The notes below the pieces were generated by a model that saw only the letters and a list, made by a program, of their open reading frames with translations, had not been told where the DNA came from and searched no databases. Shown piece by piece: positions 22,070 through 57,079 of a DNA stretch of 64,000 nucleotides (positions are counted from its first letter, which is position 1; each line of letters begins with the position of its first letter). The translations under genes were made by a program, and so were the position numbers. The stretch is from positions 32,001 through 96,000 of the IMG/VR virus record IMGVR_UViG_3300028048_000072, one strand, 5' to 3'. Origin of the DNA: a virus. Its lineage: Duplodnaviria > Caudoviricetes.

Positions 22070-22981
22070 ATGAAAACATACGGATTGCCATATAAGGGAA
22101 GTAAAGATAAAATTGCCGATAAAATTTGTTCTTTGTTTCCTATTCGTGAAAACTTTTATGATTTATTTATGGGCGGAGGCAGTATAATCCATTATCAATT
22201 GTTACAAGATAATTATAAAAATTATTTTGCCAATGATTTTAATTCTTTAGTAGTAAAAGCATTTAACATGGCTATTCATGGAAAATTTAAGAATGAAAAT
22301 AGATGGATTAGTCATGAAGATTTTGATAAATTAAAAAATATAGACCCTTATGTTGCGTTCTGCTTCAGTTTTGGAAACGATTTAAAGTCATACGCATATG
22401 GTAAAGACATAGAATCTTATAAAAAAGCATTACATTATTTAGTGATTTTTCAAGATGAAAGTTTAATGAAACAATTATTTCTAAACGTAGATTTTTCTTT
22501 TGTACACGATATTAAAGATATTAATAATCGAAGATTGAAAGTAAAAAGAGTTATCGATAATATCTTGAATGAAGATGATAATAGAATAAGAAGCAATGAA
22601 TCTTTACAATCATTAATTCAATTAGAATCTGTTCAAAGGCTCGAATCGGTGAAAAGGCTCGAAATTTTTTCGGCAAGTTATGATGAAATAAAAATTAAAC
22701 CTAATTCTGTTATATATTGTGATATTCCTTATAAATCCACAAACAAATATGAGATTTCCAAAGATTTTGATTATGATAAATTTTATAATTGGTGTGAAAA
22801 ACAAACTGAATTATGCTTTATTTCAGAATATAATATGCCAAAAGATAGATTTACATGTATAGCAGAATTTAAACATAGAAGTATTATATCTGCAAAAGAA
22901 AATCAATCTGTAATAGAAAGAGTTTTCTTACCGAATCATCAAGTAAAAGATTATAAACCTAATGATATATTTAATATGTAA
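22070..22981 (+). CDS. D12/Dam-class N6-adenine DNA methyltransferase
   Basis: PYKGSK, DLFMGGGS, YCDIPY. Confidence 0.85.
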   Translation: MKTYGLPYKGSKDKIADKICSLFPIRENFYDLFMGGGSIIHYQLLQDNYKNYFANDFNSLVVKAFNMAIHGKFKNENRWISHEDFDKLKNIDPYVAFCFSFGNDLKSYAYGKDIESYKKALHYLVIFQDESLMKQLFLNVDFSFVHDIKDINNRRLKVKRVIDNILNEDDNRIRSNESLQSLIQLESVQRLESVKRLEIFSASYDEIKIKPNSVIYCDIPYKSTNKYEISKDFDYDKFYNWCEKQTELCFISEYNMPKDRFTCIAEFKHRSIISAKENQSVIERVFLPNHQVKDYKPNDIFNM

Positions 22982-23051
22982 TTTTTTTCTTGAATTAATC
23001 ATTGTTTTAATGTATGATATATTCATATCTATTATTGGAGGATAATTTTAC

Positions 23052-24221
23052 ATGTTGGCAACATCAATTAGACCTACTAAATGGGAAGATATTATCGGTC
23101 AAGATATTATCGTGAAAGGTCTTAAAAATTTTCTTAAACAGAAGAATGTACCTAATTGTATTGTTCTAGCGGGTTCAAGTGGTTGTGGTAAAAATACAAT
23201 CGCAAATCTTCTTTCTATGTGTATTCAGAATATGGATGAATTGGATGAAAATTGTAATCCAAATTTGGAATCAAGTTCAAGTAAAGATATTTTGAATGAA
23301 AGATTTACAAGAGATGTTCATGTTTATAATGGTGGATTGTTTTCTCCTGAAGTTCTCAAAGAAGTATCTGAAATTACATCTTATAATGCACAATTTGATG
23401 ATAATGTAATTATTATTATTAATGAATGTCAGTTGATTAATCCTACTACAATGAAAAAACTTTTGGAAAAAATTGAATGTAATACAAAAGGTGTTTATTG
23501 GATTTTTACATCTACAGACATTTCTAAATTTCAGAATACTTATAAAGATAATGTAGGTAAGGATGCAGAAAAAAATGCTTTTAGGTCAAGAATTTCCATG
23601 TTCACAATTAAACCTATTCAGACAAATATATTGATGGATTTTTTGTTTAAATTGGCAAATGATTTTGACCCTAATGGTGAAAAATTAACTGATATTTTCT
23701 TTGAAGAAGGAATTACTACAATTGCAGAAGGCTCAAAAAATAATCTTAGACAAGCAATTAATGATTTCTATACCGCTGTAAATTCAGAATGTTATGATAG
23801 AGAATCTATTATAAATCTTTTGAATTATGAAGATGAAAAGAAAGAATATGAACAGATGATTATGCTTGCAAGAAAAGATAAATCATTTTTATCATTTATT
23901 CAGAATTTTGATGATGTAGAATCATTCTTCAATTATACATGGAAAATTATTTCTGATAACTTGATGCGTGATATTTCAGAAGTACCATTTAAAGAAGAAT
24001 ATAAAGAAAAGTCATATAAAACATTTAAAACTTTGGGTACATTGAATGAACTTTCTGATTTATATTCAAGAGTGAATATGTTGAATAACGGATATTTCAG
24101 AACATCAATTTATTTTGGTGAATTGTGTAAATATTATAAAGGTGAAAAGAAAATTGTTGAAAATATACAGACAACAAACGCACCTATTAAAAAAGTAAAG
24201 AAAATCATTAAGGAGAATTAG
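23052..24221 (+). CDS. dnaX: clamp loader, DNA Pol III gamma/tau-like AAA+
   Basis: RPTKWEDIIGQD, GSSGCGKN, IIIINECQ, FRSR. Confidence 0.8.
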   Translation: MLATSIRPTKWEDIIGQDIIVKGLKNFLKQKNVPNCIVLAGSSGCGKNTIANLLSMCIQNMDELDENCNPNLESSSSKDILNERFTRDVHVYNGGLFSPEVLKEVSEITSYNAQFDDNVIIIINECQLINPTTMKKLLEKIECNTKGVYWIFTSTDISKFQNTYKDNVGKDAEKNAFRSRISMFTIKPIQTNILMDFLFKLANDFDPNGEKLTDIFFEEGITTIAEGSKNNLRQAINDFYTAVNSECYDRESIINLLNYEDEKKEYEQMIMLARKDKSFLSFIQNFDDVESFFNYTWKIISDNLMRDISEVPFKEEYKEKSYKTFKTLGTLNELSDLYSRVNMLNNGYFRTSIYFGELCKYYKGEKKIVENIQTTNAPIKKVKKIIKEN

Positions 24222-24225
24222 ATAT

Positions 24226-24504
24226 ATGACTAATGAACAGATTAAAGAAAAAATTAAATTTTTGGGAAAGAATGTTTCTATTGTAAATAAAAATTTGAAT
24301 GAATATAGAAAAGATTTGAAAATTATTGAAAAGAATATTCTTGAACTCAAATCTAAAAATGGTAATCTTACTAGAGATGAAACTTTGAAATATCTTCTTT
24401 TGAAAGATAAAAGAAAGATTTATACTAATGTAATTCATGAGAAAAAGATTGAAGTAAAATATTTTTCTAAGAAGATTTCTGAATATGAAAAAGATTTGAA
24501 ATAA
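24226..24504 (+). CDS. basic coiled-coil hypothetical protein
   Basis: ORF with AAGGAG RBS. Confidence 0.6.
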   Translation: MTNEQIKEKIKFLGKNVSIVNKNLNEYRKDLKIIEKNILELKSKNGNLTRDETLKYLLLKDKRKIYTNVIHEKKIEVKYFSKKISEYEKDLK

Positions 24505-24516
24505 AAGGAGTTTATA

Positions 24517-25062
24517 GTGGTTAGTTTTGATTTCCTAGAATCTGATGCAGAAAAAGTAAATTTTATAAATAACATTGGTAATTTGATTAAAAATGGTGAA
24601 ATTTCTCCTGAAGCATTAAATGAATGTTTGGGTAATTTCTTTTCCATCACAAGATATATTTTGACACTTTATGAATCTGTATCTTTGGAAGATGATAATT
24701 TGAAGTTACAATATAAATTGTGGTGGTCAGATAAATACGATGATGCACAAATTTATTTGAGTAAGGATACAAGTCCATCAAAGACAATATCAGATACTAA
24801 AATTGAGAATCGTGTAATTGTTTCTAATAAAGAAGAATATGAAGAATGGCAGAAAAAACTTATTATGAGTGAAAAGCGAAAATCTTTTTACTATCGTATT
24901 TTAGAATCATGGAAAGCCAATTCTAAACAAATCACAGAACTTTCTCAAAATATGAGAACTGAATTAATGTCTTTATCTGTAGAAAAGAAAGCGAACGAAG
25001 ATTTAACTAAAGAAGGATTAATTCGTCATGCTAAAATTAAAAAAGTAAAATTAGATGATTAG
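24517..25062 (+). CDS. putative UvsY-like recombination mediator
   Basis: Helical protein of similar size, RecA context; weak resemblance only. Confidence 0.35.
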   Translation: MVSFDFLESDAEKVNFINNIGNLIKNGEISPEALNECLGNFFSITRYILTLYESVSLEDDNLKLQYKLWWSDKYDDAQIYLSKDTSPSKTISDTKIENRVIVSNKEEYEEWQKKLIMSEKRKSFYYRILESWKANSKQITELSQNMRTELMSLSVEKKANEDLTKEGLIRHAKIKKVKLDD

Positions 25063-25071
25063 GAGATAAAA

Positions 25072-26031
25072 ATGAGATTAAAAATTTCACATATTGATTT
25101 GGATGGTTGCTCATCTGTAATCGATAGAGTTTTTGAGATACAATTTGATAAAGTGAATTTTACAAATTATGGTGATGAAAAAGAATTGATATATCTTGAT
25201 GAACTTGATGAAAATTCAGAAGTAGTTTATGTGGATTTTACACCGAATGAAGATGCACAAAAATTGATTGTAAAAAGTGGTGCAAAATGTCATATATATG
25301 ACCACCATGAATCAATGAAAGAAAGTATTGATAATTGGATGAAAGAATATTCCAAAGTGGAATATTTTTATGACAATGAAAGAAGTGGAACAAAAATTTA
25401 TTATGATTTCTTAAAAGAAAAATATCCTAAAAATGATGTTTTGGAACAGTATGTTGAACTTGTAAATACTTATGACCTTTTTAAAAAAGATTCTCCTTTA
25501 TGGAAAGATGCAGAAAATTTAAATAGAGTTTTCTTCAAAACACTTGCTTTTTATAAAGAAGGTGAAGAAAGATTTGAACCTTTTATTAAAAATCAAGTAT
25601 GGAAATGCGAGAATATGGATTTTTATAAATTTTCATCATGGGAAATGGATAAGATTACTAAAGACATTCAAGAAGAAAATGATATTTTTTCATCTATAAT
25701 TAATGGTGGAAAAGAAACCATGAAAACTAGAAAAGATGAAGATGGTAATTATTTTGTTGTAGTAAAACTAAAGAAAAAAGTATCTGCAATATGTTCTAAA
25801 CTTTTGGAAAAATATAAAGGTTTAAAATATGTAATTGCAATAAACACATATAACAATGATGATTGGAAAATATCGGTTAGAAGTAGAGATGATTTTGATT
25901 TGTTAAATTTTGAGCATTGTAAAGGTCATGCTACGGCTTGTGGAATTTCCAATGAAAAAATAAATGTGGATGAATATTCAAAAAATCTTTGGGAAGGAAA
26001 AGAATATTGTTTGAAAAGAAAAGTAGAATAA
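25072..26031 (+). CDS. DHH family phosphoesterase
   Basis: SHIDLDG, VDF, DHH, SVRS, GHATACG. Confidence 0.85.
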   Translation: MRLKISHIDLDGCSSVIDRVFEIQFDKVNFTNYGDEKELIYLDELDENSEVVYVDFTPNEDAQKLIVKSGAKCHIYDHHESMKESIDNWMKEYSKVEYFYDNERSGTKIYYDFLKEKYPKNDVLEQYVELVNTYDLFKKDSPLWKDAENLNRVFFKTLAFYKEGEERFEPFIKNQVWKCENMDFYKFSSWEMDKITKDIQEENDIFSSIINGGKETMKTRKDEDGNYFVVVKLKKKVSAICSKLLEKYKGLKYVIAINTYNNDDWKISVRSRDDFDLLNFEHCKGHATACGISNEKINVDEYSKNLWEGKEYCLKRKVE

Positions 26032-26078
26032 ATTAGGAAAATATTTGAAATTAGGAAAATAATTCACGAAACATTTTC

Positions 26079-26492
26079 CTAATTTCTTATATGATTCCAT
26101 AAATTATTAAAATTAGTATTAATATGTCTTTTATTAAATATATTTTCAAATTTTTCAGAAATTGATTCATGATGAATCAATTGTTTTTTTATTTCATCAC
26201 AATGTTTTTGTTTTAACTCTTTATCAGATGGAATTTCATTTGTTATTTCAAAACTAGAAATCTTTTTTGTATTATTATCAAAAACAAAAGGCATATATTT
26301 GTCTGTATAATATTGTAATTTTTCAACATCCATACATTTACATTTATCAATTAAAAGTTTTATTAATGTTTCTTTAGGAATAATCCTAGTATTTTCAAGA
26401 GAATTTATAGCATATTTGTAATAATTTTCTTTATATCCGTCTGCAAATATAAAACTTATAGATGCTATGGAAATATTATCTATATTTATCAT
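26079..26492 (-). CDS. hypothetical protein
   Basis: ORF; AAACTAT 8 nt before ATG. Confidence 0.6.
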   Translation of the reverse strand: MINIDNISIASISFIFADGYKENYYKYAINSLENTRIIPKETLIKLLIDKCKCMDVEKLQYYTDKYMPFVFDNNTKKISSFEITNEIPSDKELKQKHCDEIKKQLIHHESISEKFENIFNKRHINTNFNNLWNHIRN

Positions 26493-26542
26493 AATATTAA
26501 ATAGTTTATAATCTTCAACTATTTTAAAATAGGAGGAATTTT

Positions 26543-26995
26543 ATGACTAATATTGAAGATGTTATTCGTGAACAGAAAAAAGTCTTAGAAGCATTGTACA
26601 AAGCAAAAGAAGAAAAGAAAACTACAACTGATGAAGATATGCGACAAGATGTAATGACTTTTGTTACTCATGAAATGAACACTATTAAAAATCAAGATAG
26701 ATTAAGGGAAATCGTTGAAGCAGAAATTTCTCAAAAAGTATTGTTACATGAAATGGATACAAGTGAATTATTGGATACATATAAAACATTATCTGATGAA
26801 AAATCAAAGAATACTGATGTTTTGTTGTCTTTATTCAGACCATCAAATTCATCACCAAATTCATTAATGTTACCACCAACAAAAGAAGAAAAATCAACTA
26901 TAGATTTGACACCACAACAAAGACAAAGTTTGGAAAAATTATTTAATGTTATTGAATATTCAAACAAAAATAAAGGAGAAAACAATGAAATATAA
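26543..26995 (+). CDS. hypothetical helical protein
   Basis: ORF with AGGAGG RBS. Confidence 0.7.
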   Translation: MTNIEDVIREQKKVLEALYKAKEEKKTTTDEDMRQDVMTFVTHEMNTIKNQDRLREIVEAEISQKVLLHEMDTSELLDTYKTLSDEKSKNTDVLLSLFRPSNSSPNSLMLPPTKEEKSTIDLTPQQRQSLEKLFNVIEYSNKNKGENNEI

Positions 26996-27227
26996 ATATG
27001 TCTGTAAAAATTGTGGAAATACTCAAATTTTAGATATTCCTATGGGAAATGATTTACCAAATAAAATTGCTTGTGTAAAGTGTGAAACTTTTATGTTTCA
27101 AGACTATAGCGATAAAATGAACGGATTAAGAATCGGATTGGATTTTCAAGCAACAAGCGAATTTAAACCTAAAAATTATAACATTGGTGGTAGTTCAGAT
27201 TTGGAATCTTATAGAGAAGATTTGTAA
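26985..27227 (+). CDS. FmdB-like zinc ribbon protein
   Basis: MKYKYVCKNCG...CVKC; RBS before ATG 26985. Confidence 0.65.
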   Translation: MKYKYVCKNCGNTQILDIPMGNDLPNKIACVKCETFMFQDYSDKMNGLRIGLDFQATSEFKPKNYNIGGSSDLESYREDL

Positions 27228-29520: not shown

Positions 29521-29916
29521 ATGGAAATAAATGGAACATCAAATGTAGTATATAAAGATTTTCCAATCTGTAAAAAACTCACAAATAACGGTGAATTAAA
29601 AATGTATGAAGATTCTGAAGCATTAGCACAAGCCGTTAAAATATGGTTGAGTGCAGATAAAGGAGAAAAAATAAGAAATTTAAGTGGTGGAATATTATCA
29701 CCATTTTTAGGTAAAATGATGGATGATGATGTTGCAAAAGATATGGAAGTTACAATTAGAGATGGTTTAACAAAAGATTTCAAACCAAATTTAACAATTG
29801 TATATCTTAAAGTAACACCAAATTATCAAAGAAACGTATGGATAATAGACATTGCGGGATTCAATGCAGATTTAGCAGTAGGTATCAATACTAACGTAAT
29901 TATTTCAAATTTATAA
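29521..29916 (+). CDS. gp25-like baseplate wedge protein
   Basis: EALAQAVKIWLSADKGEK pattern, 131 aa. Confidence 0.7.
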   Translation: MEINGTSNVVYKDFPICKKLTNNGELKMYEDSEALAQAVKIWLSADKGEKIRNLSGGILSPFLGKMMDDDVAKDMEVTIRDGLTKDFKPNLTIVYLKVTPNYQRNVWIIDIAGFNADLAVGINTNVIISNL

Positions 29917-29965
29917 AAAAAATAATTTGATTGTTTTTTAATTTTTGTGTATATTTAATATATAC

Positions 29966-30040
29966 GATTCTTTAGTTCAGTTGGATTAGAACAATTGCCT
30001 TCTAAGCAATAGGTCGCAAGTTCGAATCTTGCAAGAATCA
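29966..30040 (+). tRNA. tRNA-Arg(TCT)
   Basis: Cloverleaf; attgc-CTTCTAA-gcaat anticodon arm; GTTCGAATC T-loop; CCA not encoded. Confidence 0.95.
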
Positions 30041-30095
30041 AAGTGCAATACATCGTTGATGTATAATTAAAAATTTTTTGGAGGATTTTATTTTT

Positions 30096-32705
30096 ATGAT
30101 AAATGAAATCGAATTTTCTGATAACGTCAGAAGTAAAATGCTCAATGGTATGGAAAAGGTTTCTAAAGTAGTAAGTGCTACACTCGGCCCGAAAGGAAGA
30201 TTGATTGCCGTTGAACAACAGTTGGGTTCACCTATTTTGTCAAAAGATGGTGTTTTTTGTGCAAAAGCCGTAGGTAAACTCAAAGACCCTTATGAAAATA
30301 TGGGTGCAAATCTTTTGAAAGAAGTTTCTTCTAAAACTAATGAAACTGATGGTGACGGCCCGCAACCTCTTTATGCAAAAGTTCTTACACCAAATGGATT
30401 TGTAAGAATTGATTCATTGAAAATTGGTGATGAAATTTGTAGAATTGATGGAACTACACAGAAAGTAATTGGTATTTTCCCTAAAGGAAAGAAAGAACTT
30501 TATAGGGTTCATTTTGACCACGGGGATTATGTTGAATGTTGTGCAGACCATTTGTGGACAGTAACAAATACAAATTCTTCATCTAAAAAATTGCAAACAT
30601 TAACTGTTTCTGAAATGATTGAAAAAGGAATTTATAGAAATAATAAAGAATATAAATCTAGTAAATTTTTTGTTCCAAACAATAAATCATTTTTTAATAC
30701 AAAAAATGTTGTACTTGACCCATTCTTAGTTGGTGTTTTGATTGGAGATGGTTGTTTTACAGAAAAACAAGATTATTGTGAAATTACTATCGGATACAAA
30801 AAAGAACAGAAAATTATTCCAAATTTGGTTTTGCCTGAAGGAATTTTCCTAAAGAGAAATGATTATCCTAAGCGAAACGCATGTAGATTTAAGTTTGAAG
30901 GTAAAACAAAAGATGGTAAAACAATGCTCGATTTGTTGAAAGATATTGGTTTGTTTGGATGTAATTCATTTACAAAACACATTCCTACAGATTATTTGAT
31001 TAATTCTTTTGAAAATCGTGAAAAATTGTTGAATGGTCTTATGGTTACAGACGGTTATCTTAATTATAAAAATCTATTTGAATATAGCACCGTAAGTAAA
31101 CAGTTGTGTGATGATATTGTTTTCTTGTTTAAGAGTTTGGGAATTGATGTTTATACACAATTAAAAGAAAGAAGTATTGAAAAAGGTGCTTTTTCTAATA
31201 CACCCGTTTATAGAATTTCTCAATTGAAAGGATATAAATATGGTAGACGAATTACTGCTATTGAAGATATGCACAAAGAAGAGGAAATGATGTGTATTAA
31301 AGTTAGTGGTGATGAAGAACTTTATATTACTGATAATTTTATCACTACTCATAATACTTCAACTTCTTGTGTACTCGCATTTGCAATGGCAAAAGAAGGA
31401 ATGAAAGCCGTTAGTGGTGGTGTACCACCTATTTCACTTAAACGTGGTATTGATAAAGCATGTGAAAAAGTTATTGAAGAAATTAAGAAAGTAACAAAAC
31501 CAATTGAAAGTAATGAAGATTTAATTCATATTGCTACAATTTCTGCAAACAATGATGAATCTATCGGTTCTATTATTGCCGAAGCCGTAGAAAAAGTTGG
31601 TAAAAACGGTGTAATTACTACGGGCGAATCTTCTACATCAGAAACAACAATTGAATTTATGGAAGGTATGCGATTTGATAGAGGTATGTTGTCACCATAC
31701 TTTACTACAAATAATACTAATGGACTTATTTGTGAATATAAAAATCCATATATTCTTGTTACTGATAAAAATATTACAAATATTAATGAAATTGCAGGTA
31801 TTCTACAAACTGTATCTCAAAGTGGTAGACCGTTGGCAATCGTTTGTGATGACATGTCTAATGAAGTTCTTACTGTTTTGGTAAAGAATAAACTTAATGG
31901 TGCATTGCCATCAGTAGTTGTAAAAGCACCTTATTTTGGTGAAGTAAAAAAAGCCTTTTTGGAAGATTTGGCTATTTTGGTCGGGGCAACATACTTTACA
32001 GATGCAATCGGAAATTCCATCAATAAATGTACTATTAATGATTTGGGTTCATCTGAATCAATTAAATGTACTAAAGATGATACAATTATTGTTGGTGGAA
32101 ATGGTGATTCTGCAGAAATTGAAAATCGTGTAAATATTATTAATTCACAGATTAAAGTTGAAAAGAAAGATTTTAATTTGGAAAAACTTAGAGAACGATT
32201 AGCAAAATTGTGTGGTGGAGTTGCTATTGTAAAAGTTGGTGCAAATTCTGATACAGAAATGGAAGAAAAGAAACATCGTGTAGAAGATACTTTGTCTGCA
32301 ACACGTTCTGCTCTTGAAGGTGGAATTGTTTGTGGTGGTGGAGTAACACTTGCTAGAATTTCAAAAACACTTTCTGATGTAAAAACAGAAGATGAAGATG
32401 AAAAGCGTGGTGTAGAAATTGTTGCTAAGGCTCTTACAGAATTAGTAAAGTGTATTGCTAATAATGCGGGATTTAATGGTGATGTTATTCTTAATAAGAT
32501 TCTTGAAGATGATAATATGAATAACGGATATGATTTTAGTAAGCATACTCTTGTTTATGAAAATATCTTTGATAAAGGTATTGTAGACCCTGCAAATGTA
32601 GAAATTTCTGCTATTAAAAACGCATCTTCCGTAGTAGGACTTATTCTTATGACAGAAGGTGGAATTGTCATGGTAAATGACGAAAACGATAAATGTAAAA
32701 AATAA
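30096..32705 (+). CDS. groEL: chaperonin GroEL with intein
   Basis: TLGPKGR, SKDG, GDG|TST, EGMRFDRG, KAPYFG, GGG; RBS before ATG 30096. Confidence 0.95.
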   Translation: MINEIEFSDNVRSKMLNGMEKVSKVVSATLGPKGRLIAVEQQLGSPILSKDGVFCAKAVGKLKDPYENMGANLLKEVSSKTNETDGDGPQPLYAKVLTPNGFVRIDSLKIGDEICRIDGTTQKVIGIFPKGKKELYRVHFDHGDYVECCADHLWTVTNTNSSSKKLQTLTVSEMIEKGIYRNNKEYKSSKFFVPNNKSFFNTKNVVLDPFLVGVLIGDGCFTEKQDYCEITIGYKKEQKIIPNLVLPEGIFLKRNDYPKRNACRFKFEGKTKDGKTMLDLLKDIGLFGCNSFTKHIPTDYLINSFENREKLLNGLMVTDGYLNYKNLFEYSTVSKQLCDDIVFLFKSLGIDVYTQLKERSIEKGAFSNTPVYRISQLKGYKYGRRITAIEDMHKEEEMMCIKVSGDEELYITDNFITTHNTSTSCVLAFAMAKEGMKAVSGGVPPISLKRGIDKACEKVIEEIKKVTKPIESNEDLIHIATISANNDESIGSIIAEAVEKVGKNGVITTGESSTSETTIEFMEGMRFDRGMLSPYFTTNNTNGLICEYKNPYILVTDKNITNINEIAGILQTVSQSGRPLAIVCDDMSNEVLTVLVKNKLNGALPSVVVKAPYFGEVKKAFLEDLAILVGATYFTDAIGNSINKCTINDLGSSESIKCTKDDTIIVGGNGDSAEIENRVNIINSQIKVEKKDFNLEKLRERLAKLCGGVAIVKVGANSDTEMEEKKHRVEDTLSATRSALEGGIVCGGGVTLARISKTLSDVKTEDEDEKRGVEIVAKALTELVKCIANNAGFNGDVILNKILEDDNMNNGYDFSKHTLVYENIFDKGIVDPANVEISAIKNASSVVGLILMTEGGIVMVNDENDKCKK
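30360..31355 (+). mobile_element. class 3 intein (Pro1) with LAGLIDADG endonuclease in GroEL
   Basis: PQPL start, DHLW, MMCIKV, THN|T; VGVLIGDG and NGLMVTDG. Confidence 0.9.
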
Positions 32706-32877: not shown

Positions 32878-34176
32878 ATGAGCAAGACAAATATTTCGTT
32901 GGAAGAACGACAGAAAATTAAAGATTCTCTTAAAGCGACTAAAGAAAGACGAAAAACTCAAACAATCAAAGTGTTTGAATTAAAAGTTAATTGTCACCAT
33001 ATATCCAAAGAAACATTCAAAAAATTAAACGATTGCTTCAAGCAAGCAAAATGGGTATATAACGATATGCTCAATTATGGAAATATTGAAGGAAACGATA
33101 TTTTCAAATATGAGTATTTAGACCATAAGACCGTTACAAGATTAGATAAGGATGGAAATAAAATAAATGAAAAAATTGATTTGGCAGTTGTTTTTCATAG
33201 AGCGATTGTTAAACAAGTAAAGACAAATATTTCTAATCTTGTAAAAGCAAAGAAAAAAGGACTGAGAGTTGGAAAATTAAAGTATGTTTCTGAAATAAAC
33301 TCCATTCCGATTATAACAGGATTTATTAAAATCAAGAATAAGAAACGTATTACAATTCCATCATTTAAGAATCTTTGTGTTTACGGGTTAGACCAATTAG
33401 ATAAATACAAAAATTATGAAATTGCGGATGGAAGACTAATTAGAAAAGCAAGTGGTTTTTATGTTAAAATTTCAGTCTGTATAAATAAAAGTGAATTCAA
33501 GTCTGAAAAAATCGGCAAATCGGTTGGATTGGATTTTGGAATAAGAAAGAATATCACGACTTCTGACGGTGAGAAGTTCAACTGTAATGTGCTAGAAAGT
33601 GAACAACTTAAATTTCTGCAAAAACAACTGCATAGAAAGCAAGAAGGTTCAAAGCGATATTACAGACTTCTTAATCAAATCAGAAGAGAGTATGAACATC
33701 TTTCAAATAAGAAAACGGATGAAGCAAACAAACTTGTTCATTATCTGAAAACAAACAACGATGTTATTTATTTTCAAGATGAACAGATTACCAATTGGAA
33801 GAAAAAGAAACGAAACAAGAAAAATGGAAAAGTGAATTATCGTCTCTCATTTGGCAAGCAGATTCAGAGTTCTTATTTGGGAAGAGTAAAGAATAAACTT
33901 GTTTCTTTAGAGAAAGAAGGGAAGTCTTTCAAAATATCCAAGTGGAAAGCAACTACAAAGTTTTGTCCGAATTGTGGATGTCTTAATGACATTGGTGATT
34001 CTGAAACTTATGTTTGTGAATGTGGCTACACAATGGATAGAGATGTTCATGCTTCAATGAATATTTTAATGTTTGGCTCGACTAAGAGAGCTGAGTGGTT
34101 GGAACAACCCTCCGTAGAGGAATTGGTCAATACAAGTTTGAACGCTAGTCGTTCAGATTGCAAATCAGTCCGTTGA
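32878..34176 (+). CDS. tnpB: TnpB RNA-guided nuclease family protein
   Basis: VGLDFG RuvC-I, TTKFCPNCG..CECG zinc finger, DRD RuvC-III. Confidence 0.9.
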   Translation: MSKTNISLEERQKIKDSLKATKERRKTQTIKVFELKVNCHHISKETFKKLNDCFKQAKWVYNDMLNYGNIEGNDIFKYEYLDHKTVTRLDKDGNKINEKIDLAVVFHRAIVKQVKTNISNLVKAKKKGLRVGKLKYVSEINSIPIITGFIKIKNKKRITIPSFKNLCVYGLDQLDKYKNYEIADGRLIRKASGFYVKISVCINKSEFKSEKIGKSVGLDFGIRKNITTSDGEKFNCNVLESEQLKFLQKQLHRKQEGSKRYYRLLNQIRREYEHLSNKKTDEANKLVHYLKTNNDVIYFQDEQITNWKKKKRNKKNGKVNYRLSFGKQIQSSYLGRVKNKLVSLEKEGKSFKISKWKATTKFCPNCGCLNDIGDSETYVCECGYTMDRDVHASMNILMFGSTKRAEWLEQPSVEELVNTSLNASRSDCKSVR

Positions 34177-45275: not shown

Positions 45276-46040
45276 ATGAGCGAAATAACTTTATATAAAG
45301 GTGATTGTTTAGAATTGATGAGCAATATAAAAGATAAATCGGTTGATATGATTTTGGCTGATTTACCGTATGGTCAATTAAAATCTGAAACTTTAAAATG
45401 GGATAATATAATTCCGTTTGATAAGTTATGGGGACAGTATAATCGAGTTATTAAAGATAATGGTGTAATTGCTTTGTTTGGAAGTGGATTATTTACTGTA
45501 GATTTAATCAATTCGAATCGAAAAGATTTTAAATATAATCTTATTTGGGAAAAGAATGTTCCCACAGGAATGTCATCTGCAAAATATAGACCGATGAAAT
45601 ATTATGAAACAATTTCAGTATTTTATAAAGAACTTCCAACTTATAATCCAATTATGAAAGAAAGAATTGGAAAAGGTAAAGAATGTTATAATTATGAACA
45701 TTATTGTGGAAATTCTAATCATCTCAAATTAAATAAAATAAAGAAAAAATATGACCCTAATTTTGTACAACCTTCTGATATTTTGAAATTTGATGTAGTT
45801 CCAAATAGAAACGGAAAATTACATCCTACTCAAAAACCAACTGCTTTACTTGAATATCTCATCAAGACCTACACTAACGAAAATGAATGGATATTAGATA
45901 ACTGTATGGGAAGTGGTAGTACATGTGTCGCTTGTATCAACACAAAAAGAAATTTTATCGGAATTGAAAAAGATGATAAATATTTTGAGATTGCGGAAGA
46001 TAGGATAAACAAGGCGAAGGAAAGTATTTTTGACATGTGA
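45276..46040 (+). CDS. N4/N6 DNA methyltransferase (beta class)
   Basis: GDCL, DLPYG, HPTQKP, LDNCMGSGST. Confidence 0.92.
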   Translation: MSEITLYKGDCLELMSNIKDKSVDMILADLPYGQLKSETLKWDNIIPFDKLWGQYNRVIKDNGVIALFGSGLFTVDLINSNRKDFKYNLIWEKNVPTGMSSAKYRPMKYYETISVFYKELPTYNPIMKERIGKGKECYNYEHYCGNSNHLKLNKIKKKYDPNFVQPSDILKFDVVPNRNGKLHPTQKPTALLEYLIKTYTNENEWILDNCMGSGSTCVACINTKRNFIGIEKDDKYFEIAEDRINKAKESIFDM

Positions 46041-46054: not shown

Positions 46055-46873
46055 ATGAATTTTCAACCAGCGATTAAATGGAGTGGAAGTAAACGAAGCC
46101 AATGTGATGAAATTATTTCATACTTCCCTAGAAAAATAGAAACTTATTATGAATCTTTTCTTGGTGGTGGTTCTGTAGCATACAGACTTATGAATTCTGA
46201 TATAAAAGTGAATAAGTTTGTTTTGTCTGATTTGAATACAGATTTAATAAATTTATACAAACTCATACAGAATGATTACAAGTCAATTGTTTCTCACTAT
46301 AAACTTTTATGGAATGAATTAAACAAAGATTCAGACTTTGAAAGAAAGAAATTGTATTTTGCAGAAATAAGAAAAAGATTGAACGAAAAGCATGACCCTA
46401 AAGATTTTATGTTTATAATGCGTACTACTACAAATGGTATGCCAAGATATAATTCTGATGGTAATTTTAATAATACTTTTCATACAACTCGTTGTGGTAT
46501 TGAACCTTTTAGGTTAGAAAAAATATTAAAAGAATGGAATTTAGTGTTGAATAATCATAATGTGGAATTTATAAATGCAAGTTATGATACATTTAGTCCG
46601 AATGAAAATGATTTTTGTTATTACGACCCACCTTATGCTAACACAAAAGGAATGTATTTTGGTGCAATAGATAATGATAAATTTTTTAACTTTCTTCAAA
46701 ATTTAAAATGTCCGTACTGTTTTTCATTTGATGGATATTGTGAAGATGAGGACTCAACTTATGATGTGCCGAAATCTGTTTATGATGAACATATTTACCT
46801 AAAAGCAGGAAAATCTTCTTTTAGACGACTTGTTGGAAAATTTACAGATAAAATGGTATATGAAAGTCTATAA
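46055..46873 (+). CDS. Dam-class DNA adenine methyltransferase (tail apparently frameshifted)
   Basis: IKWSGSK, ESFLGGGS, YDPPY. Confidence 0.9.
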   Translation: MNFQPAIKWSGSKRSQCDEIISYFPRKIETYYESFLGGGSVAYRLMNSDIKVNKFVLSDLNTDLINLYKLIQNDYKSIVSHYKLLWNELNKDSDFERKKLYFAEIRKRLNEKHDPKDFMFIMRTTTNGMPRYNSDGNFNNTFHTTRCGIEPFRLEKILKEWNLVLNNHNVEFINASYDTFSPNENDFCYYDPPYANTKGMYFGAIDNDKFFNFLQNLKCPYCFSFDGYCEDEDSTYDVPKSVYDEHIYLKAGKSSFRRLVGKFTDKMVYESL

Positions 46874-46985
46874 AGGTTGTGAAAAGCAAAAGGAAAGTTT
46901 GTTTGATATGTAATAATTTTCAGTTTAGAATTGAAATTATTTCAGAAAGAGCATAAAATCATATAAAACAACATAAGGAATAAAT

Positions 46986-49121
46986 ATGAACGAAACAAAT
47001 GTCAAGATAAAGAAAATCAAGAAAGTTATGAGTGAAACAAATTTTATTGGTGTCGATTTGAGTAAAGGTAGTGATGTAGGAACTTGTAATGGAAAAGTTA
47101 CACCTAAAGTTGTAAAAAAAGTAAAGAAGATTGTAAAAGATGAATCTACCATGAAATCTGATGTTGTAGACAATTCTCCTTGCGATTTCAGTGATTTTGA
47201 AAGTGGTAAAGTTGAAGTATCTAGTTCTGCTAATGTGCCGACTGTGAAAAAGGTGAAGAAAGAAATTAAAAAAATTGTAAAAGATATTAAAGACGAAATA
47301 TCTAATTCTACAGATGTAATTTCTTTTGTACGAGTCATTGACTTGAAAAGAGAAGATTATTCAGAATTTACTGAAGAAAAATATCCATACGGTTTGACCT
47401 TCCTAGATTTTGAGGTGTTCAAGTATGATTGGTTGGTAGTTTTGATAGATGTTATTGAATTAAAAGAAACTATAATTGTAAACGATAGAAAAGCGTTGTT
47501 GAAGTTCTATATGTCTCATCGTAACAAATTACACGCTTCATATAACGGTCGCTCTTACGATTCTACAATATATAAAGGAATTATTCTTGGTATGAATCCT
47601 AAAGAATTGAATGATAAATTGATTGTAGAAAGATTAAAACCTTTTCAAATTAGTAATAAATTTAAAGAAGTTGAATTATTAAATTATGATATAATGACTA
47701 AAATAGAATCATTAAAGGTTCTTGAAGCGTACCTACAAGATTCTATATATGAATCAAAAATTTCTTTTGACATTGATAGACCTCTTACAATGGATGAACT
47801 TGAGGAAACGATTCGCTACTGCCATAACGATGTTGTGGAATGTAAAAAAGTTTTTCTTTTAAGACACGATGATTTTGAAGTTAGTATGGGTGTAATTGAA
47901 ATGTTTAATTTACCTATATCAAATATAAATCTTACAAATGCACAATTGACTGCTAAAGTTTTGGAATGTGAAAGACCAAAAGAAGATAGAAAAGATGAAT
48001 TTAATTTGTGGGTAGTTGATACAGTAAAACTTGAAAAATATAAAGACGTTATCGATTGGTTTATGAATCCTGCAAATCATGATTATAGTAAATTTTATGT
48101 TCGTGATGTTTGTGGTATGAAACATAAATTTGGTTGGGGTGGATTACATTCTGTGAATGATGAACCGATGATTATCAACGAACATGTACAAGATTGGGAT
48201 GTGGCTAGTCTTTATCCCTCACTTGATATTCGATACGAGTTGCTAACTAGAAATTGTAAACATCCTGAAAAATTTAAATTTATTTATGACGAACGCATTC
48301 GATTAAAGAAAGCAAAAGACCCTAAGAACAAATGTTTGAAGTTGATTTTAAATTCAACTTATGGAATTTGTAAAGATAAAAACAGTTCTGCTTACGACCC
48401 TTTGATGTCAAACATGACTTGTCTTACAGGACAACTTTTAATTCTTATGTTAATTGAATGGATTGAACCTTATGTAAAAATATGGGTTCAAACCAATACG
48501 GACGGAATCCAGTTTGTTGCTAAAGATGGTTGTCAAGAAAAGATAGAAAGTTTAATTCACAAATGGGAAGGTGTATCAGGTATGAATATGGAAGTCGAAA
48601 ATATTTTGAAAACTTACCAATCGAACGTCAACAATTATACCTTCCAACTAGATGATGGGTCGTTTAAAAGAAAAGGAGCATATCTTAAAAAAGCAACTCC
48701 ACTAGACGCTGATTTACCAATTGTCAATGAAGCAATGTTTAATTTCTTAGCATATGGAAAAAAAATTGAAGATACTATAAATGAATGTAATGATTTATAC
48801 ATGTTTCAGAAAGTGTATAAAATTTCATCAAACTACAAATATGGTTATCATAATGGCAAAGAAATTAACGAAAAGGTGTATCGTATTTTTGCTTCTAATG
48901 ATTTGAAAGATACATGGTTAGGAAAACAGAAAGAAAAAGGGGGAACGATTGAAAAATTTGCAAATTGTCCAAATAACTGTTTTCTTGAATTGGGAGATAT
49001 ACATGGTAAAAAATGTTCAGAATATCCTATGTTGAATAAACAATGGTATATTGATTTAGCACAAGATAGAATTGAAAAAGGTTATCATTTGGATTGTAAA
49101 CCAAGTATTTTTGATTTTTAA
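46986..49121 (+). CDS. family B DNA polymerase
   Basis: DFE, YNGRSYD, YCHND (exonuclease); DVASLYPS, KLILNSTYG, NTDG (polymerase). Confidence 0.92.
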   Translation: MNETNVKIKKIKKVMSETNFIGVDLSKGSDVGTCNGKVTPKVVKKVKKIVKDESTMKSDVVDNSPCDFSDFESGKVEVSSSANVPTVKKVKKEIKKIVKDIKDEISNSTDVISFVRVIDLKREDYSEFTEEKYPYGLTFLDFEVFKYDWLVVLIDVIELKETIIVNDRKALLKFYMSHRNKLHASYNGRSYDSTIYKGIILGMNPKELNDKLIVERLKPFQISNKFKEVELLNYDIMTKIESLKVLEAYLQDSIYESKISFDIDRPLTMDELEETIRYCHNDVVECKKVFLLRHDDFEVSMGVIEMFNLPISNINLTNAQLTAKVLECERPKEDRKDEFNLWVVDTVKLEKYKDVIDWFMNPANHDYSKFYVRDVCGMKHKFGWGGLHSVNDEPMIINEHVQDWDVASLYPSLDIRYELLTRNCKHPEKFKFIYDERIRLKKAKDPKNKCLKLILNSTYGICKDKNSSAYDPLMSNMTCLTGQLLILMLIEWIEPYVKIWVQTNTDGIQFVAKDGCQEKIESLIHKWEGVSGMNMEVENILKTYQSNVNNYTFQLDDGSFKRKGAYLKKATPLDADLPIVNEAMFNFLAYGKKIEDTINECNDLYMFQKVYKISSNYKYGYHNGKEINEKVYRIFASNDLKDTWLGKQKEKGGTIEKFANCPNNCFLELGDIHGKKCSEYPMLNKQWYIDLAQDRIEKGYHLDCKPSIFDF

Positions 49122-52236: not shown

Positions 52237-52247
52237 GAAATTAAAAA

Positions 52248-53017
52248 ATGAGTATAGAATTAATTAAAGGTGATTGTCTTAAAGAAATGAAAAATATTAA
52301 AGATGAATCTGTGCAACTTATTCTTACAGATTTACCTTATGGTACTACACCTTTAGAATTTGATAAAGAGATAATTCCTTTTGAACCTTTATGGAAAGAA
52401 TATAAAAGAATTATTAAGAAAAATGGTGCTATTGTATTATTTGCTCAACAACCTTTTACAAGTAAATTAATCATGTCTAATTTAGATATGTATAAATATA
52501 ATTGGATATGGGTAAAAGATAATGCAACAAATTTCTTGAATAAACGTTATCAATGTGGAAAGATTACGGAAGATATTTGTGTATTTGGAAAAGGTGCATG
52601 TTCTTTTACTAAGAATGGTATTAATATGAAATATAATCCACAAATGGAAGTTGGAAAACCGTATAAAACTACTAATAATGTGTTTAGAAGAAAGTGTGCG
52701 GTCGTGAGGGGGGGATTAGAAATGTCGATACAATAAATAATGGTGAAAGATTGCCAAATAATTTATTGTATTTTTCACATGATACAGATGAAAGATTGCA
52801 TCCTACACAAAAGCCTTTAGATTTAATTAGATATTTGATTAAGACTTATACTGATGAAAATGATTTGGTTTTAGATTCGTGCATGGGAAGTGGAACTACT
52901 GCTATAGGATGTTTTGCAGAAAAGAGAAATTTTATCGGATATGAAATTGATGATAATTATTTTGAAATTGCAAAGAAAAGATATGAAAAAGTAAGTACAA
53001 GTATATTTGATATGTAA
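52248..53017 (+). pseudogene. N4/N6 DNA methyltransferase split at a G7 tract (52708-52714)
   Basis: DLPYG in ORF1; HPTQKP and LDSCMGSGT in ORF2; G8 would fuse them. Confidence 0.85.
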
Positions 53018-53060
53018 TTGTATTTGTGATATAATTTCTGTTAGTTGGAGGATTACTACT

Positions 53061-53471
53061 TTGAAATTAATAAAACAAGAAAAAGAAATGTTGGAAAATC
53101 TTAGAAACATAAGCGGTGAAAATCAAGAAAGAATCGCTAATGTATTGAAAGCCTTGTCTTTATCTACACTTATGAATTATGCAGATGATGAACACAATAT
53201 TTTTATTCCATATTTTGGATGCTTACATATTGTTTATAAAGGTGATATTATTGTAGATAATAAACGTGAAGCAGATTTGGATATTCAGTTTTTTCCTAGT
53301 TCATATCTTAAATTAAATATTGGTGAAATTGAAGATATTAAAAAGAATGGAAATACTATTGATATTATGAAAATTCCAATTATCAATGAAATATCAAAAG
53401 ATATTGAAAACGGTCTTAGAAATATAATTGATGGTACTACAGATTTAAATGATGAAGAAAACAACGGGTAA
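53061..53471 (+). CDS. HU/IHF-like DNA-binding protein
   Basis: Two helices then IFIPYFG..FFPSSYLK resembles VxxxGFG..FKPxxxLK; GGAGG before TTG 53061. Confidence 0.5.
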   Translation: MKLIKQEKEMLENLRNISGENQERIANVLKALSLSTLMNYADDEHNIFIPYFGCLHIVYKGDIIVDNKREADLDIQFFPSSYLKLNIGEIEDIKKNGNTIDIMKIPIINEISKDIENGLRNIIDGTTDLNDEENNG

Positions 53472-54225
53472 ATATATGGAATTAAATTTTATTGAAGATT
53501 TTAAACCTTGTGGAAAATGTAATAAAGGTTTTACAATTTTTGAAGGTCGTGTAAAACCTTGTTCATGTTGGTTAAATTATAAAAATAAAATTAAACTTTT
53601 TGGAAAATATTTGGATTCAAATCTTTTACAGAAAGAATCAACTTCAAGTAATGCAGAAGAACTCATTAATTATACTTTGTGTAATTATAAAGGAAATGAT
53701 GAAAATAAAAATCTTCCAAAATTGCAGAAGTTTATTGAAAAGTTTGATGAAAAGTTTAATACAATTTCATTATTTTTCTATGGTGAAATGGGAACACAAA
53801 AAACTCATATTGCTAAATGGATTTTAACTTCTTTAATAAGTAAAGGTAAATCAACTTATTATATCTCTAGTAAAGATATAATTGATTTGATTATGAAAAG
53901 TGAAAGAGATGAAGAAAGTCAAAATCTTGTAGATTATATTACAAAAGTTGATTGTTTAGTATTGGATGAATTTACAAGATTGAATTACTTTTCTACAGAT
54001 TATAAACAGAAAGTTTTATATTCATGGCTTAAAACAAGATTGGAATCTGTTCATAAATCTACAATTATTATTGATAATATAAAAGTAGATGAAATTAAAA
54101 ATTCTCCTATGGGTGAAAATATTGGTCAATTAATTGAAAGAAATACAAAAGAATGTGTATTTGAATTTAAAGATAATTATTACTCTAATGGTGGTGGAGT
54201 TGATTTGAAAGGATTGTGGGATTAG
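53449..54225 (+). CDS. DnaC/IstB-like helicase loader ATPase
   Basis: CxxC..CxC, GEMGTQKTH, LVLDE. Confidence 0.8.
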   Translation: MMKKTTGKYMELNFIEDFKPCGKCNKGFTIFEGRVKPCSCWLNYKNKIKLFGKYLDSNLLQKESTSSNAEELINYTLCNYKGNDENKNLPKLQKFIEKFDEKFNTISLFFYGEMGTQKTHIAKWILTSLISKGKSTYYISSKDIIDLIMKSERDEESQNLVDYITKVDCLVLDEFTRLNYFSTDYKQKVLYSWLKTRLESVHKSTIIIDNIKVDEIKNSPMGENIGQLIERNTKECVFEFKDNYYSNGGGVDLKGLWD

Positions 54226-54228
54226 ATT

Positions 54229-54969
54229 ATGAGTAAAGTTGAATTGTATAATGAAGATTGCTTGGAAGTAATGGAGGGGGTGGCAGATAAATCGGTAGAC
54301 ATGATTTTATGTGATTTACCTTATAATGTTACTGCTTGCGAATGGGATATATTAATACCTTTTGATAAATTATGGGGGCAATATAATAGAATTATAAAAG
54401 ACAATGGTGCGATTGTATTATTTGGTACAGAACCGTTCTCTACACAATTAAAAATGAGTAATCTGAAACATTATAAATATGATTGGATTTGGAATAAAGT
54501 TCGTGGTGTAGGATTTCAAATTGCAAAATATAGACCAATGCAACAACATGAATATATTTCTGTATTTTGCAACGGTAAATTAAATTATTATCCTATTATG
54601 GAAAAAAGAGATAAAGTGAAAAAATCTAAAAATTATGGTAATTCTAAAGTTTGCAGATTACAAAGTAATGATATGAAAGAAAGAATTTATACAGAAAAAT
54701 ATCCAACTTCAATTTTAACTTATTCTAATGCTTCTCAAAAAGGTAGATTGCATCCAAGTCAAAAACCTACAAATTTATTAGAATATCTTATAAAGACTTA
54801 TACAAAAGAAAACGAAACAGTTTTGGACAATTGTATGGGAAGTGGAAGTACAGGTGTCGCTTGTATTAATACAAATCGCAATTTCATCGGCATTGAAAAA
54901 GACGACAAGTATTTCAAGATTGCGGAAGATAGGATAAACAAAGCGAAAGAAAGTATTTTTGATATGTAA
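54229..54969 (+). CDS. N4/N6 DNA methyltransferase (beta class)
   Basis: DLPY, HPSQKP, LDNCMGSGST. Confidence 0.92.
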   Translation: MSKVELYNEDCLEVMEGVADKSVDMILCDLPYNVTACEWDILIPFDKLWGQYNRIIKDNGAIVLFGTEPFSTQLKMSNLKHYKYDWIWNKVRGVGFQIAKYRPMQQHEYISVFCNGKLNYYPIMEKRDKVKKSKNYGNSKVCRLQSNDMKERIYTEKYPTSILTYSNASQKGRLHPSQKPTNLLEYLIKTYTKENETVLDNCMGSGSTGVACINTNRNFIGIEKDDKYFKIAEDRINKAKESIFDM

Positions 54970-55057
54970 AAATTTTCAGTTTAGAATTGAAAATAATGGT
55001 GAATATTTATTGGATAAAACTGACGATATTTTCAATTAATCATCTAACTATATTTTA

Positions 55058-55429
55058 ATGTATGGAGATTTTATTATGACAAAAATGCAGAAGAAATTTA
55101 ATGAATATATTGTTGCTAGTGCAGAATTAGTAAAACACTTGAATGAATCAGATTATGATGTAGATAATTTTGATGAAGAAACAGATAGATTGAATGATGT
55201 TATAGATGATATGGGTGCAGAATTAGGTGGTGAAACAGATGATTTTACAATCTATAATGATAAAAGTGGAGATACTACAATTGATAATCTTTATCTTGAT
55301 GATTATATCAAATCAGTAATGGGTAAAGATTATTTTTATGATAAACGATGTTGGGAATATCTATATGACATTGTAAAAGAAATGTTGGAAGATATGCCTA
55401 TTGCAGATGAAAATGTAATTTATGAATAA
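55058..55429 (+). CDS. acidic hypothetical protein
   Basis: TAACTAT upstream; KKFNE and LNES motifs. Confidence 0.65.
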   Translation: MYGDFIMTKMQKKFNEYIVASAELVKHLNESDYDVDNFDEETDRLNDVIDDMGAELGGETDDFTIYNDKSGDTTIDNLYLDDYIKSVMGKDYFYDKRCWEYLYDIVKEMLEDMPIADENVIYE

Positions 55430-55508
55430 TTTTTCACTTAACATAAAATACCATTTGTGATATACTTTTGAATATAAATACTTGATGTTGTAAAGGGGAA
55501 TATGAATT

Positions 55509-55832
55509 ATGACAGTAAAGGTTACATTTAATGACTTTGTATTGGTAAATTACAAAGAAAGAGAGTTGGAAGTTCATTGTATCGCAAATGGATATGATAC
55601 ACATGAAAATGAAGTTTTGTATTTTGCAGATGGAAGTGGACAACCCGCTTATGATGAATTTGAAGTAGATGACTTTGAAATCACAAAAGTAATTGAAAAT
55701 GGTAAAGAAATAACTGATTACGATAAGGATGAACTTGAAGAACTTGTTTATGATGCTTTGTATGAAGAATCAGAAAATGGTTCTGAAAAATGGGTCTATC
55801 CTGAAGTAGATGATTATTACGATTTTGATTAA
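55509..55832 (+). CDS. acidic hypothetical protein
   Basis: ORF followed by hairpin 55841-55876. Confidence 0.65.
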   Translation: MTVKVTFNDFVLVNYKERELEVHCIANGYDTHENEVLYFADGSGQPAYDEFEVDDFEITKVIENGKEITDYDKDELEELVYDALYEESENGSEKWVYPEVDDYYDFD

Positions 55833-56016
55833 TTAAAATTAGAACACCTATTCTAAAAATGATTAGGTGTTCTTTTATTAAAATGGAGTGATTAATGATA
55901 GACAAAGATATTTTGATAAATGATATTTTTCATACCATCTTTGTCTTTATTCACTATTATATTAGGCTTTATAGGAATGTTGATATTCATTATAAAACTT
56001 TTAGGAGGATTTTAAT

Positions 56017-56307
56017 ATGATAATGGTTTCTACAATGCTTTTAGTTGGATTACTTCTTTATTGTGTAATTTCAACGATTGGTATAATTTTAATGTATAAA
56101 ATGAATTTTGATTTGGAAAATGAACTTTGTGATGAAAAGGAAATTAATTTTGAAATTAAATCAAGATTTGTTAGATGCAATACTTGTACAAAAGAAATGA
56201 AAGATAAATGCCTTATGTGGTCTGAAAATCTTTGTGAAGGTGAAAGATGTAATGAACTTATCGATATTCAATCTTTAATGAATAAAGATAATTTGGTAAT
56301 TCATTAA
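56017..56307 (+). CDS. membrane-anchored Cys-rich protein
   Basis: N-terminal TM, CxxC. Confidence 0.55.
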   Translation: MIMVSTMLLVGLLLYCVISTIGIILMYKMNFDLENELCDEKEINFEIKSRFVRCNTCTKEMKDKCLMWSENLCEGERCNELIDIQSLMNKDNLVIH

Positions 56308-56326
56308 TTAATAGGAAATAAGAAAA

Positions 56327-57079
56327 ATGACAGTAAATAAAAATTCAATTATTTTGGGTGATTGTTTAAGTGGATTAAAAGAAATTGAAGATAATACATT
56401 TGACGTTGCTTTTACATCACCACCGTATGGGGATATAGGAACAGAATCTTTTGAAGAAATTAAAGCAAAAGGTAAAGGTAATAATCCTTATGGTACTCAT
56501 AGAAAATATCTGAATGTCGAACAACATATTGATGATTGGTATGAATGGCAAGTTGAAATTATAGATGAACTTCTTAGAATTTGTAAGAAATGGGTAATTT
56601 ATAATATTGGTGCTATTAAAGTTAATAGAGAAAATGTTTATAAATTAATCGGTCATTATGCAGACAGAATACATGACGATATTATATGGTACAAAAGTAA
56701 TGGATTGCCGTGTAGAAACGAAGGTTCTATTTCTAATACATATGAACATATTCTTTTGATAAAAAAGAATCCAAAAGATATGATTCATGTAAAATCACAT
56801 TGTTTTAGAAATGTCATTGAAGAAGGTGTAAATTCACAAAATGAATTTGCACACATTCATCATGCCGTAATGAATAAAAGAATTTCTGATATCTGCATCA
56901 ATGAATTTACAGATGTTGGTGATTTTGTAATTGACCCGTTTATGGGAATGGGAACTACGGCTATGAGTTGTATTGATTTGAAAAGAAATTATTTTGGATT
57001 TGAAATTTGTGAAGAATATTATAAAAATTGTTTGCAAAGAATTCAAAATAGAAATATGATTAATGATATATGGGAATGA
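56327..57079 (+). CDS. N4-cytosine/N6-adenine DNA methyltransferase
   Basis: FTSPPY, HHAV, IDPFMGMGTT. Confidence 0.9.
   Translation: MTVNKNSIILGDCLSGLKEIEDNTFDVAFTSPPYGDIGTESFEEIKAKGKGNNPYGTHRKYLNVEQHIDDWYEWQVEIIDELLRICKKWVIYNIGAIKVNRENVYKLIGHYADRIHDDIIWYKSNGLPCRNEGSISNTYEHILLIKKNPKDMIHVKSHCFRNVIEEGVNSQNEFAHIHHAVMNKRISDICINEFTDVGDFVIDPFMGMGTTAMSCIDLKRNYFGFEICEEYYKNCLQRIQNRNMINDIWE

Follow-up and report, generated by a model that had tools for sequence, protein, structure and literature searches.

A sliding clamp encoded by an uncultured tailed phage is probably the docking site of both its DNA polymerase and a bank of DNA methyltransferases (MTases), all of which end in closely similar short peptides. 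The genes concerned lie in a stretch of 64,000 nucleotides (nt), here called the window, which corresponds to bases 32001-96000 of the 132,722-bp IMG/VR record IMGVR_UViG_3300028048_000072. The polymerase ends PSIFDF and its companion MTases end ESIFDM, TSIFDM or NDIFNM; in structure prediction, one of the MTase tails enters a pocket of the phage's own DnaN-fold clamp. We put the probability that the tails dock the polymerase and MTases on this clamp at roughly 0.7.

Translation of the open reading frames (ORFs) placed every C-terminus quoted in the original prediction, for the polymerase, the MTases and two further replication proteins, at the gene given for it, and Pfam agreed with the assigned enzyme classes (MTases, 5'-3' exonuclease and IstB/DnaA-type ATPase). 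The polymerase (46986-49121 of the window; 711 amino acids, aa; phrog_1252) has its tail encoded at 49101-49118. ESIFDM closes two MTases of family PF01555 (N6/N4), one of 254 aa (45276-46040) and one of 246 aa (54229-54969), according to Pfam. A third PF01555 gene is split between two frames (52248-53017; ORFs 52248-52736 and 52694-53017), the C-terminal part ending TSIFDM. In the D12 class (PF02086), a 303-aa MTase (22070-22981) ends NDIFNM, and the ORF of a Dam-like enzyme (46055-46912; PF02086, 111 bits) stops at 46873, leaving its tail codons orphaned. Another PF01555 MTase of 250 aa (56327-57079) carries the variant NDIWE, an Ile-Trp-acid ending of the kind found on DnaC-like proteins. 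A Hef-like DUF7487 fusion with a partial MTase domain (12501-14582) has no tail and ends ..VVYITI. All of these genes are on the plus strand, and the phage carries seven MTase genes in 133 kb. The two MTase classes had been described as unrelated, which is too strong, both being Rossmann-fold S-adenosylmethionine-dependent enzymes; their C-terminal regions are nevertheless not homologous.

Three other replication proteins end in the same or looser forms of the motif. The DnaG-type primase, of which the 5' part lies at 1-383 on the minus strand (PF01807 zinc ribbon), is a 325-aa protein encoded at 31406-32383 of the record; it ends NDIFTW. The original prediction overlooked this carrier because its C-terminus lies outside the window, 594 bases ahead of the window start. 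The flap endonuclease (FEN) or 5'-3' exonuclease (3593-4561, minus strand; PF02739) has GDIFSML nine residues from its end, followed by DGEELKRV. The DnaC/IstB-like helicase loader (53449-54225, plus strand; PF01695 and PF00308) ends KGLWD.

A strict pattern at the exact C-terminus, [ILM]F[DNSTGE][FMLIW], was built from the tails of the polymerase and MTases, and its expected counts were taken from its frequency elsewhere in the same proteome. Among the 175 ORFs scanned in the phage under study (G000), six end in this pattern against 0.18 expected (binomial P = 1.3e-8). The corresponding counts in two related genomes, G002 and G003, are five against 0.22 and 10 against 0.33, so that the C-terminal excess is about 30-fold in each of the three; the P values are generous, because the pattern was chosen after the data had been seen. 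All six carriers in G000 are DNA enzymes, namely the polymerase, the primase and four MTase ORFs. The enrichment on DNA-acting proteins for which the original prediction had proposed to look is therefore present. PF01555 and PF02086 MTases account for 22 of the 745 ORFs in the three genomes and bear 15 of the 21 strict tails (Fisher p of about 1e-21, a figure inflated by paralogy of the MTases). The rest are on the polymerase, the primase, a GNAT-domain protein in G002 and G003, an unknown protein of 306 aa and one of 166 aa whose MTase-like signal is weak.

The relatives were reached through the few homologs of the clamp, which led to three IMG/VR records and several metagenome contigs. G001 is a 40-kb fragment, G002 has 135 kb and 38% guanine plus cytosine (GC), and G003 has 218 kb and is 92% complete; whole records were compared with the phage, and the PF01555 and PF02086 genes of G000, G002 and G003 were listed by Pfam profile search of the raw DNA. 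The record under study has a GC content of about 26% and a CheckV completeness of about 72%. Its tail sheath and tail lysin genes indicate a tailed phage with a contractile tail, and an anaerobic ribonucleotide reductase gene points to an anaerobic host. Neither megablast with 22 kb of the window nor tblastn with the clamp gave a match among GenBank phages.

Within this group of phages the endings are strongly kept. Every PF01555 or PF02086 gene of G000, G002 and G003, except the Hef-like fusion, ends in an aliphatic residue followed by Phe or Trp, examples being ESLFDM, ETIFDI, TNLFDL, KGLFDL, EDIFDF, KDIFSL, ADLFDL, SDIFDL, EDIFGL, PSLFDMI, GNLFDEI and GGLFND. PSLFDMI belongs to the G003 ortholog of the D12 MTase at 22070-22981 (82% identity), and the polymerase ortholog of G003 ends PSMFEEFF. 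The orthologs of the primase end KIFW, DIFWT, EIFWL or EFIW, giving the variants IFW, IFTW, IFWT, IFWL and FIW in this group, and those of the DnaC-like loader end SIWD, TLWDD, NIWDD or NIWED, according to the pattern [IL]W[DE] or [IL]W[DE]D. In the FEN, the motif [IL][FLD][SDG]ML followed by [DNE]G.. is kept in six orthologs, even in distant relatives. The looser endings of the loader and the FEN are therefore not only present as first described, they are conserved within their orthologous groups. Contigs with distant clamp homologs (L116-L118), too short to include MTases, show the gene order clamp, ORF of about 180 aa, FEN, together with the FEN motif.

Outside the group the tail is rare. 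Among the 120 best database matches of the MTase at 45276-46040, 115 lack the tail, although most are about 70% identical, and the tail-less proteins mostly finish within a few residues of the last helix. The tail is present in the four closest matches (84-92% identical) and in one match of about 71% identity, which ends RLWE. Similarly, the alignment of the polymerase with 80 IMG/VR homologs, mostly from phages of 35-45 kb and 40-45% identical, stops at about residue 697, those homologs ending some 10 residues earlier, just past a conserved KRLxDFG helix. The endings of three of these homologs, FSLF, PTLF and KSIF, resemble the bacterial beta-clamp motif. Judged from these alignments, the tail is an add-on confined to the phage clade that has this clamp family. 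Three PF01555 MTases from other metagenomes (P0046, P0053 and P0104), about 70% identical to the 45276-46040 enzyme, end KEKLF or KKKLF, and these endings may be tails for a different type of clamp.

Two other proteins in the relatives carry the tail or an ending like it. A GNAT-domain protein of about 310 aa ends KDLFDL in G003 (214347-215297; L102:5347-6297, minus strand) and KELFDF in G002 (122947-123864; L109:8947-9864, minus strand); no ortholog was seen in G000. This protein is possibly a further clamp client that modifies DNA. A protein without family assignment ends EPSMFDDDF in G002 (29846-30613; L104:10846-11613, minus strand) and EPSMFDDNF in G003 (96029-96502; L096:1029-1502, plus strand), endings closely similar to the polymerase tail PSMFEEFF of G003.

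The proposed receptor is a 352-aa protein encoded at 5162-6220 on the minus strand. Its AlphaFold2 model (mean predicted local distance difference test, pLDDT, 90.4) consists of three repeated domains of strand-helix units, and the top Foldseek matches of the model are all bacterial DnaN proteins (E = 1.8e-18; template modelling score 0.76; 10-15% identity). At the sequence level the relationship is distant: in Pfam the protein reaches only PF02768, with 25.2 bits and below the 27-bit cut-off, and the best hit of a profile search of the PDB is domain III of the Staphylococcus aureus clamp (E = 0.006). The family is also small, a profile search of 1.84 billion representatives yielding 71 proteins at E = 1e-3 or better; a wider clamp alignment (A3) was too divergent to seed a scan of the collection. 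No match to the gp45-type clamp (PF02916) was found in G000, G002 or G003, and a T4-type clamp was rejected as receptor of the tails because of this absence.

A clamp-loader subunit of the DnaX/delta' type is encoded at 23052-24221 on the plus strand (389 aa; AAA+ ATPase; PF13177 DNA_pol3_delta2, 38 bits), with orthologs in G001 and G003, and is the only loader-type ATPase recognised in the genome. Both the beta-like clamp and the DnaX-like loader that had been read from the window are thus supported, the former by its predicted fold and the latter by its Pfam match. The C-terminus of the loader subunit is basic (..KKVKKI[IV]K..) and conserved in G000, G001 and G003. In most of the relatives examined, an ORF of about 180 aa without family assignment (4574-5110, minus strand) separates the clamp gene from the FEN gene, whereas in G003 it lies just beyond the FEN; it may encode an accessory protein of the clamp or loader.

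Prediction of the complex, in which the clamp alignment was combined with that of the last 40 residues (215-254) of the MTase at 45276-46040, gave interface scores (ipSAE) of 0.62, 0.62 and 0.63 in three runs, versus at most 0.02 in three controls; replacing the clamp by an unrelated protein lowered the score to 0.02. Of 80 solved complexes, 58 attain the score mark applied, as do 2 of 110 mismatched pairs; these counts hold only roughly here because custom alignments were used. At least 55% of the contacts were common to the runs, and the pLDDT of the tail partner was 49-52. The tail is predicted to lie in a hydrophobic pocket between domains II and III of the clamp, with confident contacts from I251, F252 and M254. 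On the clamp side the contacts involve residues 156 and 159-161 (strands of domain II), 218-228 in domain III (its linker and first helix) and, in the last strands, 333-334 and 346-348. Among these contact positions, P219, L334, I161, F225, K333 and I346 vary little or not at all across the clamp family; in the MTase, Phe252 of the tail is invariant and the linker is variable. Docking of the MTases on the phage clamp, the central claim of the original prediction, is accordingly supported in silico, for one MTase tail. The full-length MTase gave a poor model (mean pLDDT 62) with lower confidence across its last four residues, and no weight is placed on it.

Two of the MTase genes are disrupted in the assembly. 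In the D12 gene at 46055, a 5-nt deletion at about 46870 creates the stop and takes away only the docking tail, as is seen when its DNA is aligned with the G003 ortholog, which is intact (287 aa; 91% identity; ending ESLFDM). The orphan tail (..KESLFDM, then a stop) is found at 46875-46912 in the +1 frame, with ESLFDM itself at 46892-46909, just past the frameshift as had been noted; since these downstream codons are intact, the deletion is recent, polymorphic or an assembly error. The PF01555 gene at 52248-53017 switches frame at a run of seven G residues (52708-52714) in this 26%-GC genome, which may reflect phase variation or an error in reading the homopolymer.

The DNA around the tail codons suggests how the tails spread. 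The MTases at 45276, 54229 and 52248-53017 are paralogs. In addition, a stretch of about 45-60 nt comprising the last codons and the 3' flank is near-identical between the D12 gene (46890-46936) and the PF01555 gene (54945-54992), and contains a downstream TTTCAGTTTAGAATTGAAA element occurring in the window only at these two places. Because these two genes share both tail codons and 3' flank, the tail module seems to move between non-homologous genes by 3'-end recombination. The tail-bearing MTases are spread along 35 kb (22070 to 57079), and insertion of a cassette after the polymerase gene, with the tail as its scar, was for that reason rejected as the only explanation.

Taken together, these features suggest a scheme in which the phage clamp would be a docking hub, loaded at primer ends by the phage loader. 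The docking peptide would run from an aliphatic-Phe core through an acidic or polar residue to Met, Leu or Phe at the end, and would enter the pocket between domains II and III. The polymerase would grip the clamp through PSIFDF, and MTases with the same tail would take the second pocket of the ring or clamps left on finished DNA. From there they would scan new DNA in one dimension and modify it close to the fork. Replication-coupled methylation, with protection from host restriction as its benefit, is a plausible inference, and the presence of seven MTase genes in 133 kb fits such protection. The primase and helicase loader, whose endings contain Trp, may bind in this pocket too or have a different partner.

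Several points weigh against docking on the phage clamp. The tails, which read [KP]-[ES]-S-I-F-D-[MF], lack the Gln and Leu of the bacterial consensus QLxLF, of which only the x-aliphatic-Phe part fits. The complex score may in part be the model's memory, since many structures of beta clamps with peptides have been solved, and the pLDDT of the partner is only about 50. One gene with an MTase domain, the Hef-like fusion, has no tail, and in the assembly two of the seven MTase genes are disrupted or without their tail. Paralogy, besides inflating the Fisher figure, means together with the shared 3' DNA that the independent acquisitions of the tail are fewer than the genes that carry it. Finally, another hub protein could be missing, because the record is only about 72% complete.

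The host beta clamp is an alternative receptor, on which the tails might dock instead of or besides the phage clamp, so that the MTases would ride host-type clamps. The Ser-Ile/Leu-Phe core is like the last three residues of QL[SD]LF, FSLF, PTLF and KSIF end three distant homologs of the polymerase, found in small phages for which no clamp is known, and some unrelated MTase homologs end KEKLF or KKKLF. The phage, however, has its own clamp and loader, the tails extend two residues past the Phe, the last of which touches the phage clamp in the model, and the tail is limited to MTases of the clade that has this clamp family; we therefore hold the host clamp to be an unlikely receptor, if the least unlikely of the alternatives. 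Some other hub of the replisome, such as the single-stranded DNA-binding protein, a DnaB-like helicase or the polymerase itself, is a still less probable address. A model for it exists in phage T7, where the acidic, Phe-ended tails of gp2.5 and gp4 bind the T7 polymerase; the tails described here are likewise acidic and aromatic, and the related but distinct Trp endings of the primase and DnaC-like loader might serve a different partner. Against such a hub, the polymerase is itself tailed, which fits the clamp as receptor, and the controlled prediction favours the clamp pocket, with a score of 0.02 when an unrelated protein stands in its place.

The shared ending might instead reflect common descent and 3'-end recombination among MTase genes, with no function in docking. 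The paralogy of the genes at 45276, 54229 and 52248-53017 would agree with this, as would the tail codons and TTTCAGTTTAGAATTGAAA shared over about 45-60 nt by the 46055 D12 and 54229 PF01555 genes. What makes this account very improbable is that the exact C-terminal ending is kept on cores that are 22-60% identical or belong to different families (polymerase, D12, PF01555 and GNAT), and is kept in three genomes of 27-38% GC, while homologs of about 70% identity outside the clade are without it; moreover, Phe252 is invariant and the linker variable. Recombination at 3' ends leaves unexplained both the retention of the tail across genomes and its presence on the polymerase, the primase and the GNAT proteins. 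We give the lowest probability of all to a C-terminal signal for degradation or sorting of early proteins, such as a degron or packaging tag. Short hydrophobic C-termini can be degrons, and all of the carriers lie within the early or replication gene block; yet these are DNA-acting enzymes only, with no general distribution among early proteins, and the predicted fit to the clamp pocket would be left unexplained. Docking of the polymerase and MTases on the phage clamp remains the preferred reading.

Some features of the window stand apart from the tail system. LAGLIDADG and intein signatures interrupt a Pif1/RecD-like helicase (8026-10617) and a phage GroEL-like chaperonin (30078-32705), the latter followed by TnpB (OrfB_IS605; 32878-34176). 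The polymerase at 46986-49121 had no Pfam match, and a sequence search against the PDB gave no meaningful match; a weak PF00136 signal in the G003 ortholog and the GenBank annotations of homologs hint at a divergent, family-B-like enzyme.

Orphan methyltransferases are a main route by which phages escape restriction-modification systems. To our knowledge, how these enzymes outrun the host nucleases on fresh DNA has rarely been addressed. A clamp-docking tail, if true, would be a simple physical answer to this race between MTase and nuclease on new DNA, and would extend the clamp toolbelt to DNA modification in bacterial viruses, in parallel with DNMT1 and PCNA. Comparison of the polymerase C-terminus with all other C-termini would also be an inexpensive way, from sequence, to recognise clamp clients in uncultured phages, and the tails give a candidate binding motif for an uncharacterised and very divergent family of phage beta-like clamps. 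More tentatively, and at somewhat less than even odds, phage clamps of unrelated types may be landing pads for N6/N4 and D12 MTases and for GNAT/Mom-like enzymes, the tail being a portable address tag of about 10 codons spread by 3'-end recombination; modification would then be hard-wired to the fork, as a convergent counterpart of DNMT1-PCNA. No report of a prokaryotic or phage link between MTases and a clamp was found in open-access papers and preprints.

The nearest parallel is found in T4 and RB69, where the gp43 polymerase tail is common to gp33 and gp55 and where the RB69 wording (Ser-Leu/Ile-Phe-Asp-Met) is very similar to that of the tails described here. In both cases the polymerase ends in a peptide that other phage proteins also have, for docking on the phage's own clamp, which in the present phage is predicted. 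The structure of the RB69 polymerase C-terminal peptide with its clamp is known (PMC2705854). In contrast, the clamp of the present phage is of the three-domain DnaN type rather than a trimer of the gp45/PCNA type (PF02916 being absent), its extra clients are DNA methyltransferases and not transcription factors, and its polymerase belongs to another, highly divergent group (phrog_1252).

In bacteria, the QL[SD]LF or QLxLF motif serves toolbelt clients that include Pol II, III, IV and V, MutS/L, Hda and ligase (PMC2705854, PMC9690074), and no bacterial DNA methyltransferase is named as a beta-clamp client in these reviews. The two systems have in common the fold, the predicted pocket between domains II and III, and a terminal motif outside the folded domain that is carried by many unrelated clients; they differ in that the phage motif has neither the Gln nor the Leu that bacteria conserve and runs on for two residues past the Phe. 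The MuC protein of phage Mu is reported to recruit the host beta clamp for late transcription (PMC12867686), and is likewise a non-polymerase phage protein on a beta-type clamp, differing in its use of the host clamp and in serving transcription, versus DNA modification here. The eukaryotic Dnmt1 binds PCNA (PMC9690074) and thus resembles the phage enzymes as a DNA methyltransferase with a clamp-binding peptide, predicted in the phage case, by which new DNA would be methylated. It is, however, a C5-cytosine enzyme that uses an N-terminal PIP (PCNA-interacting peptide) box on trimeric PCNA, as opposed to several N6/N4-type enzymes with C-terminal tails and a beta-like clamp, and the purpose in the phage is likely protection from restriction, not epigenetic inheritance. 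What sets the present phage apart from these systems is the combination of a beta-like clamp, a non-canonical motif and clients that are N6/N4-type MTases, with docking that is predicted.

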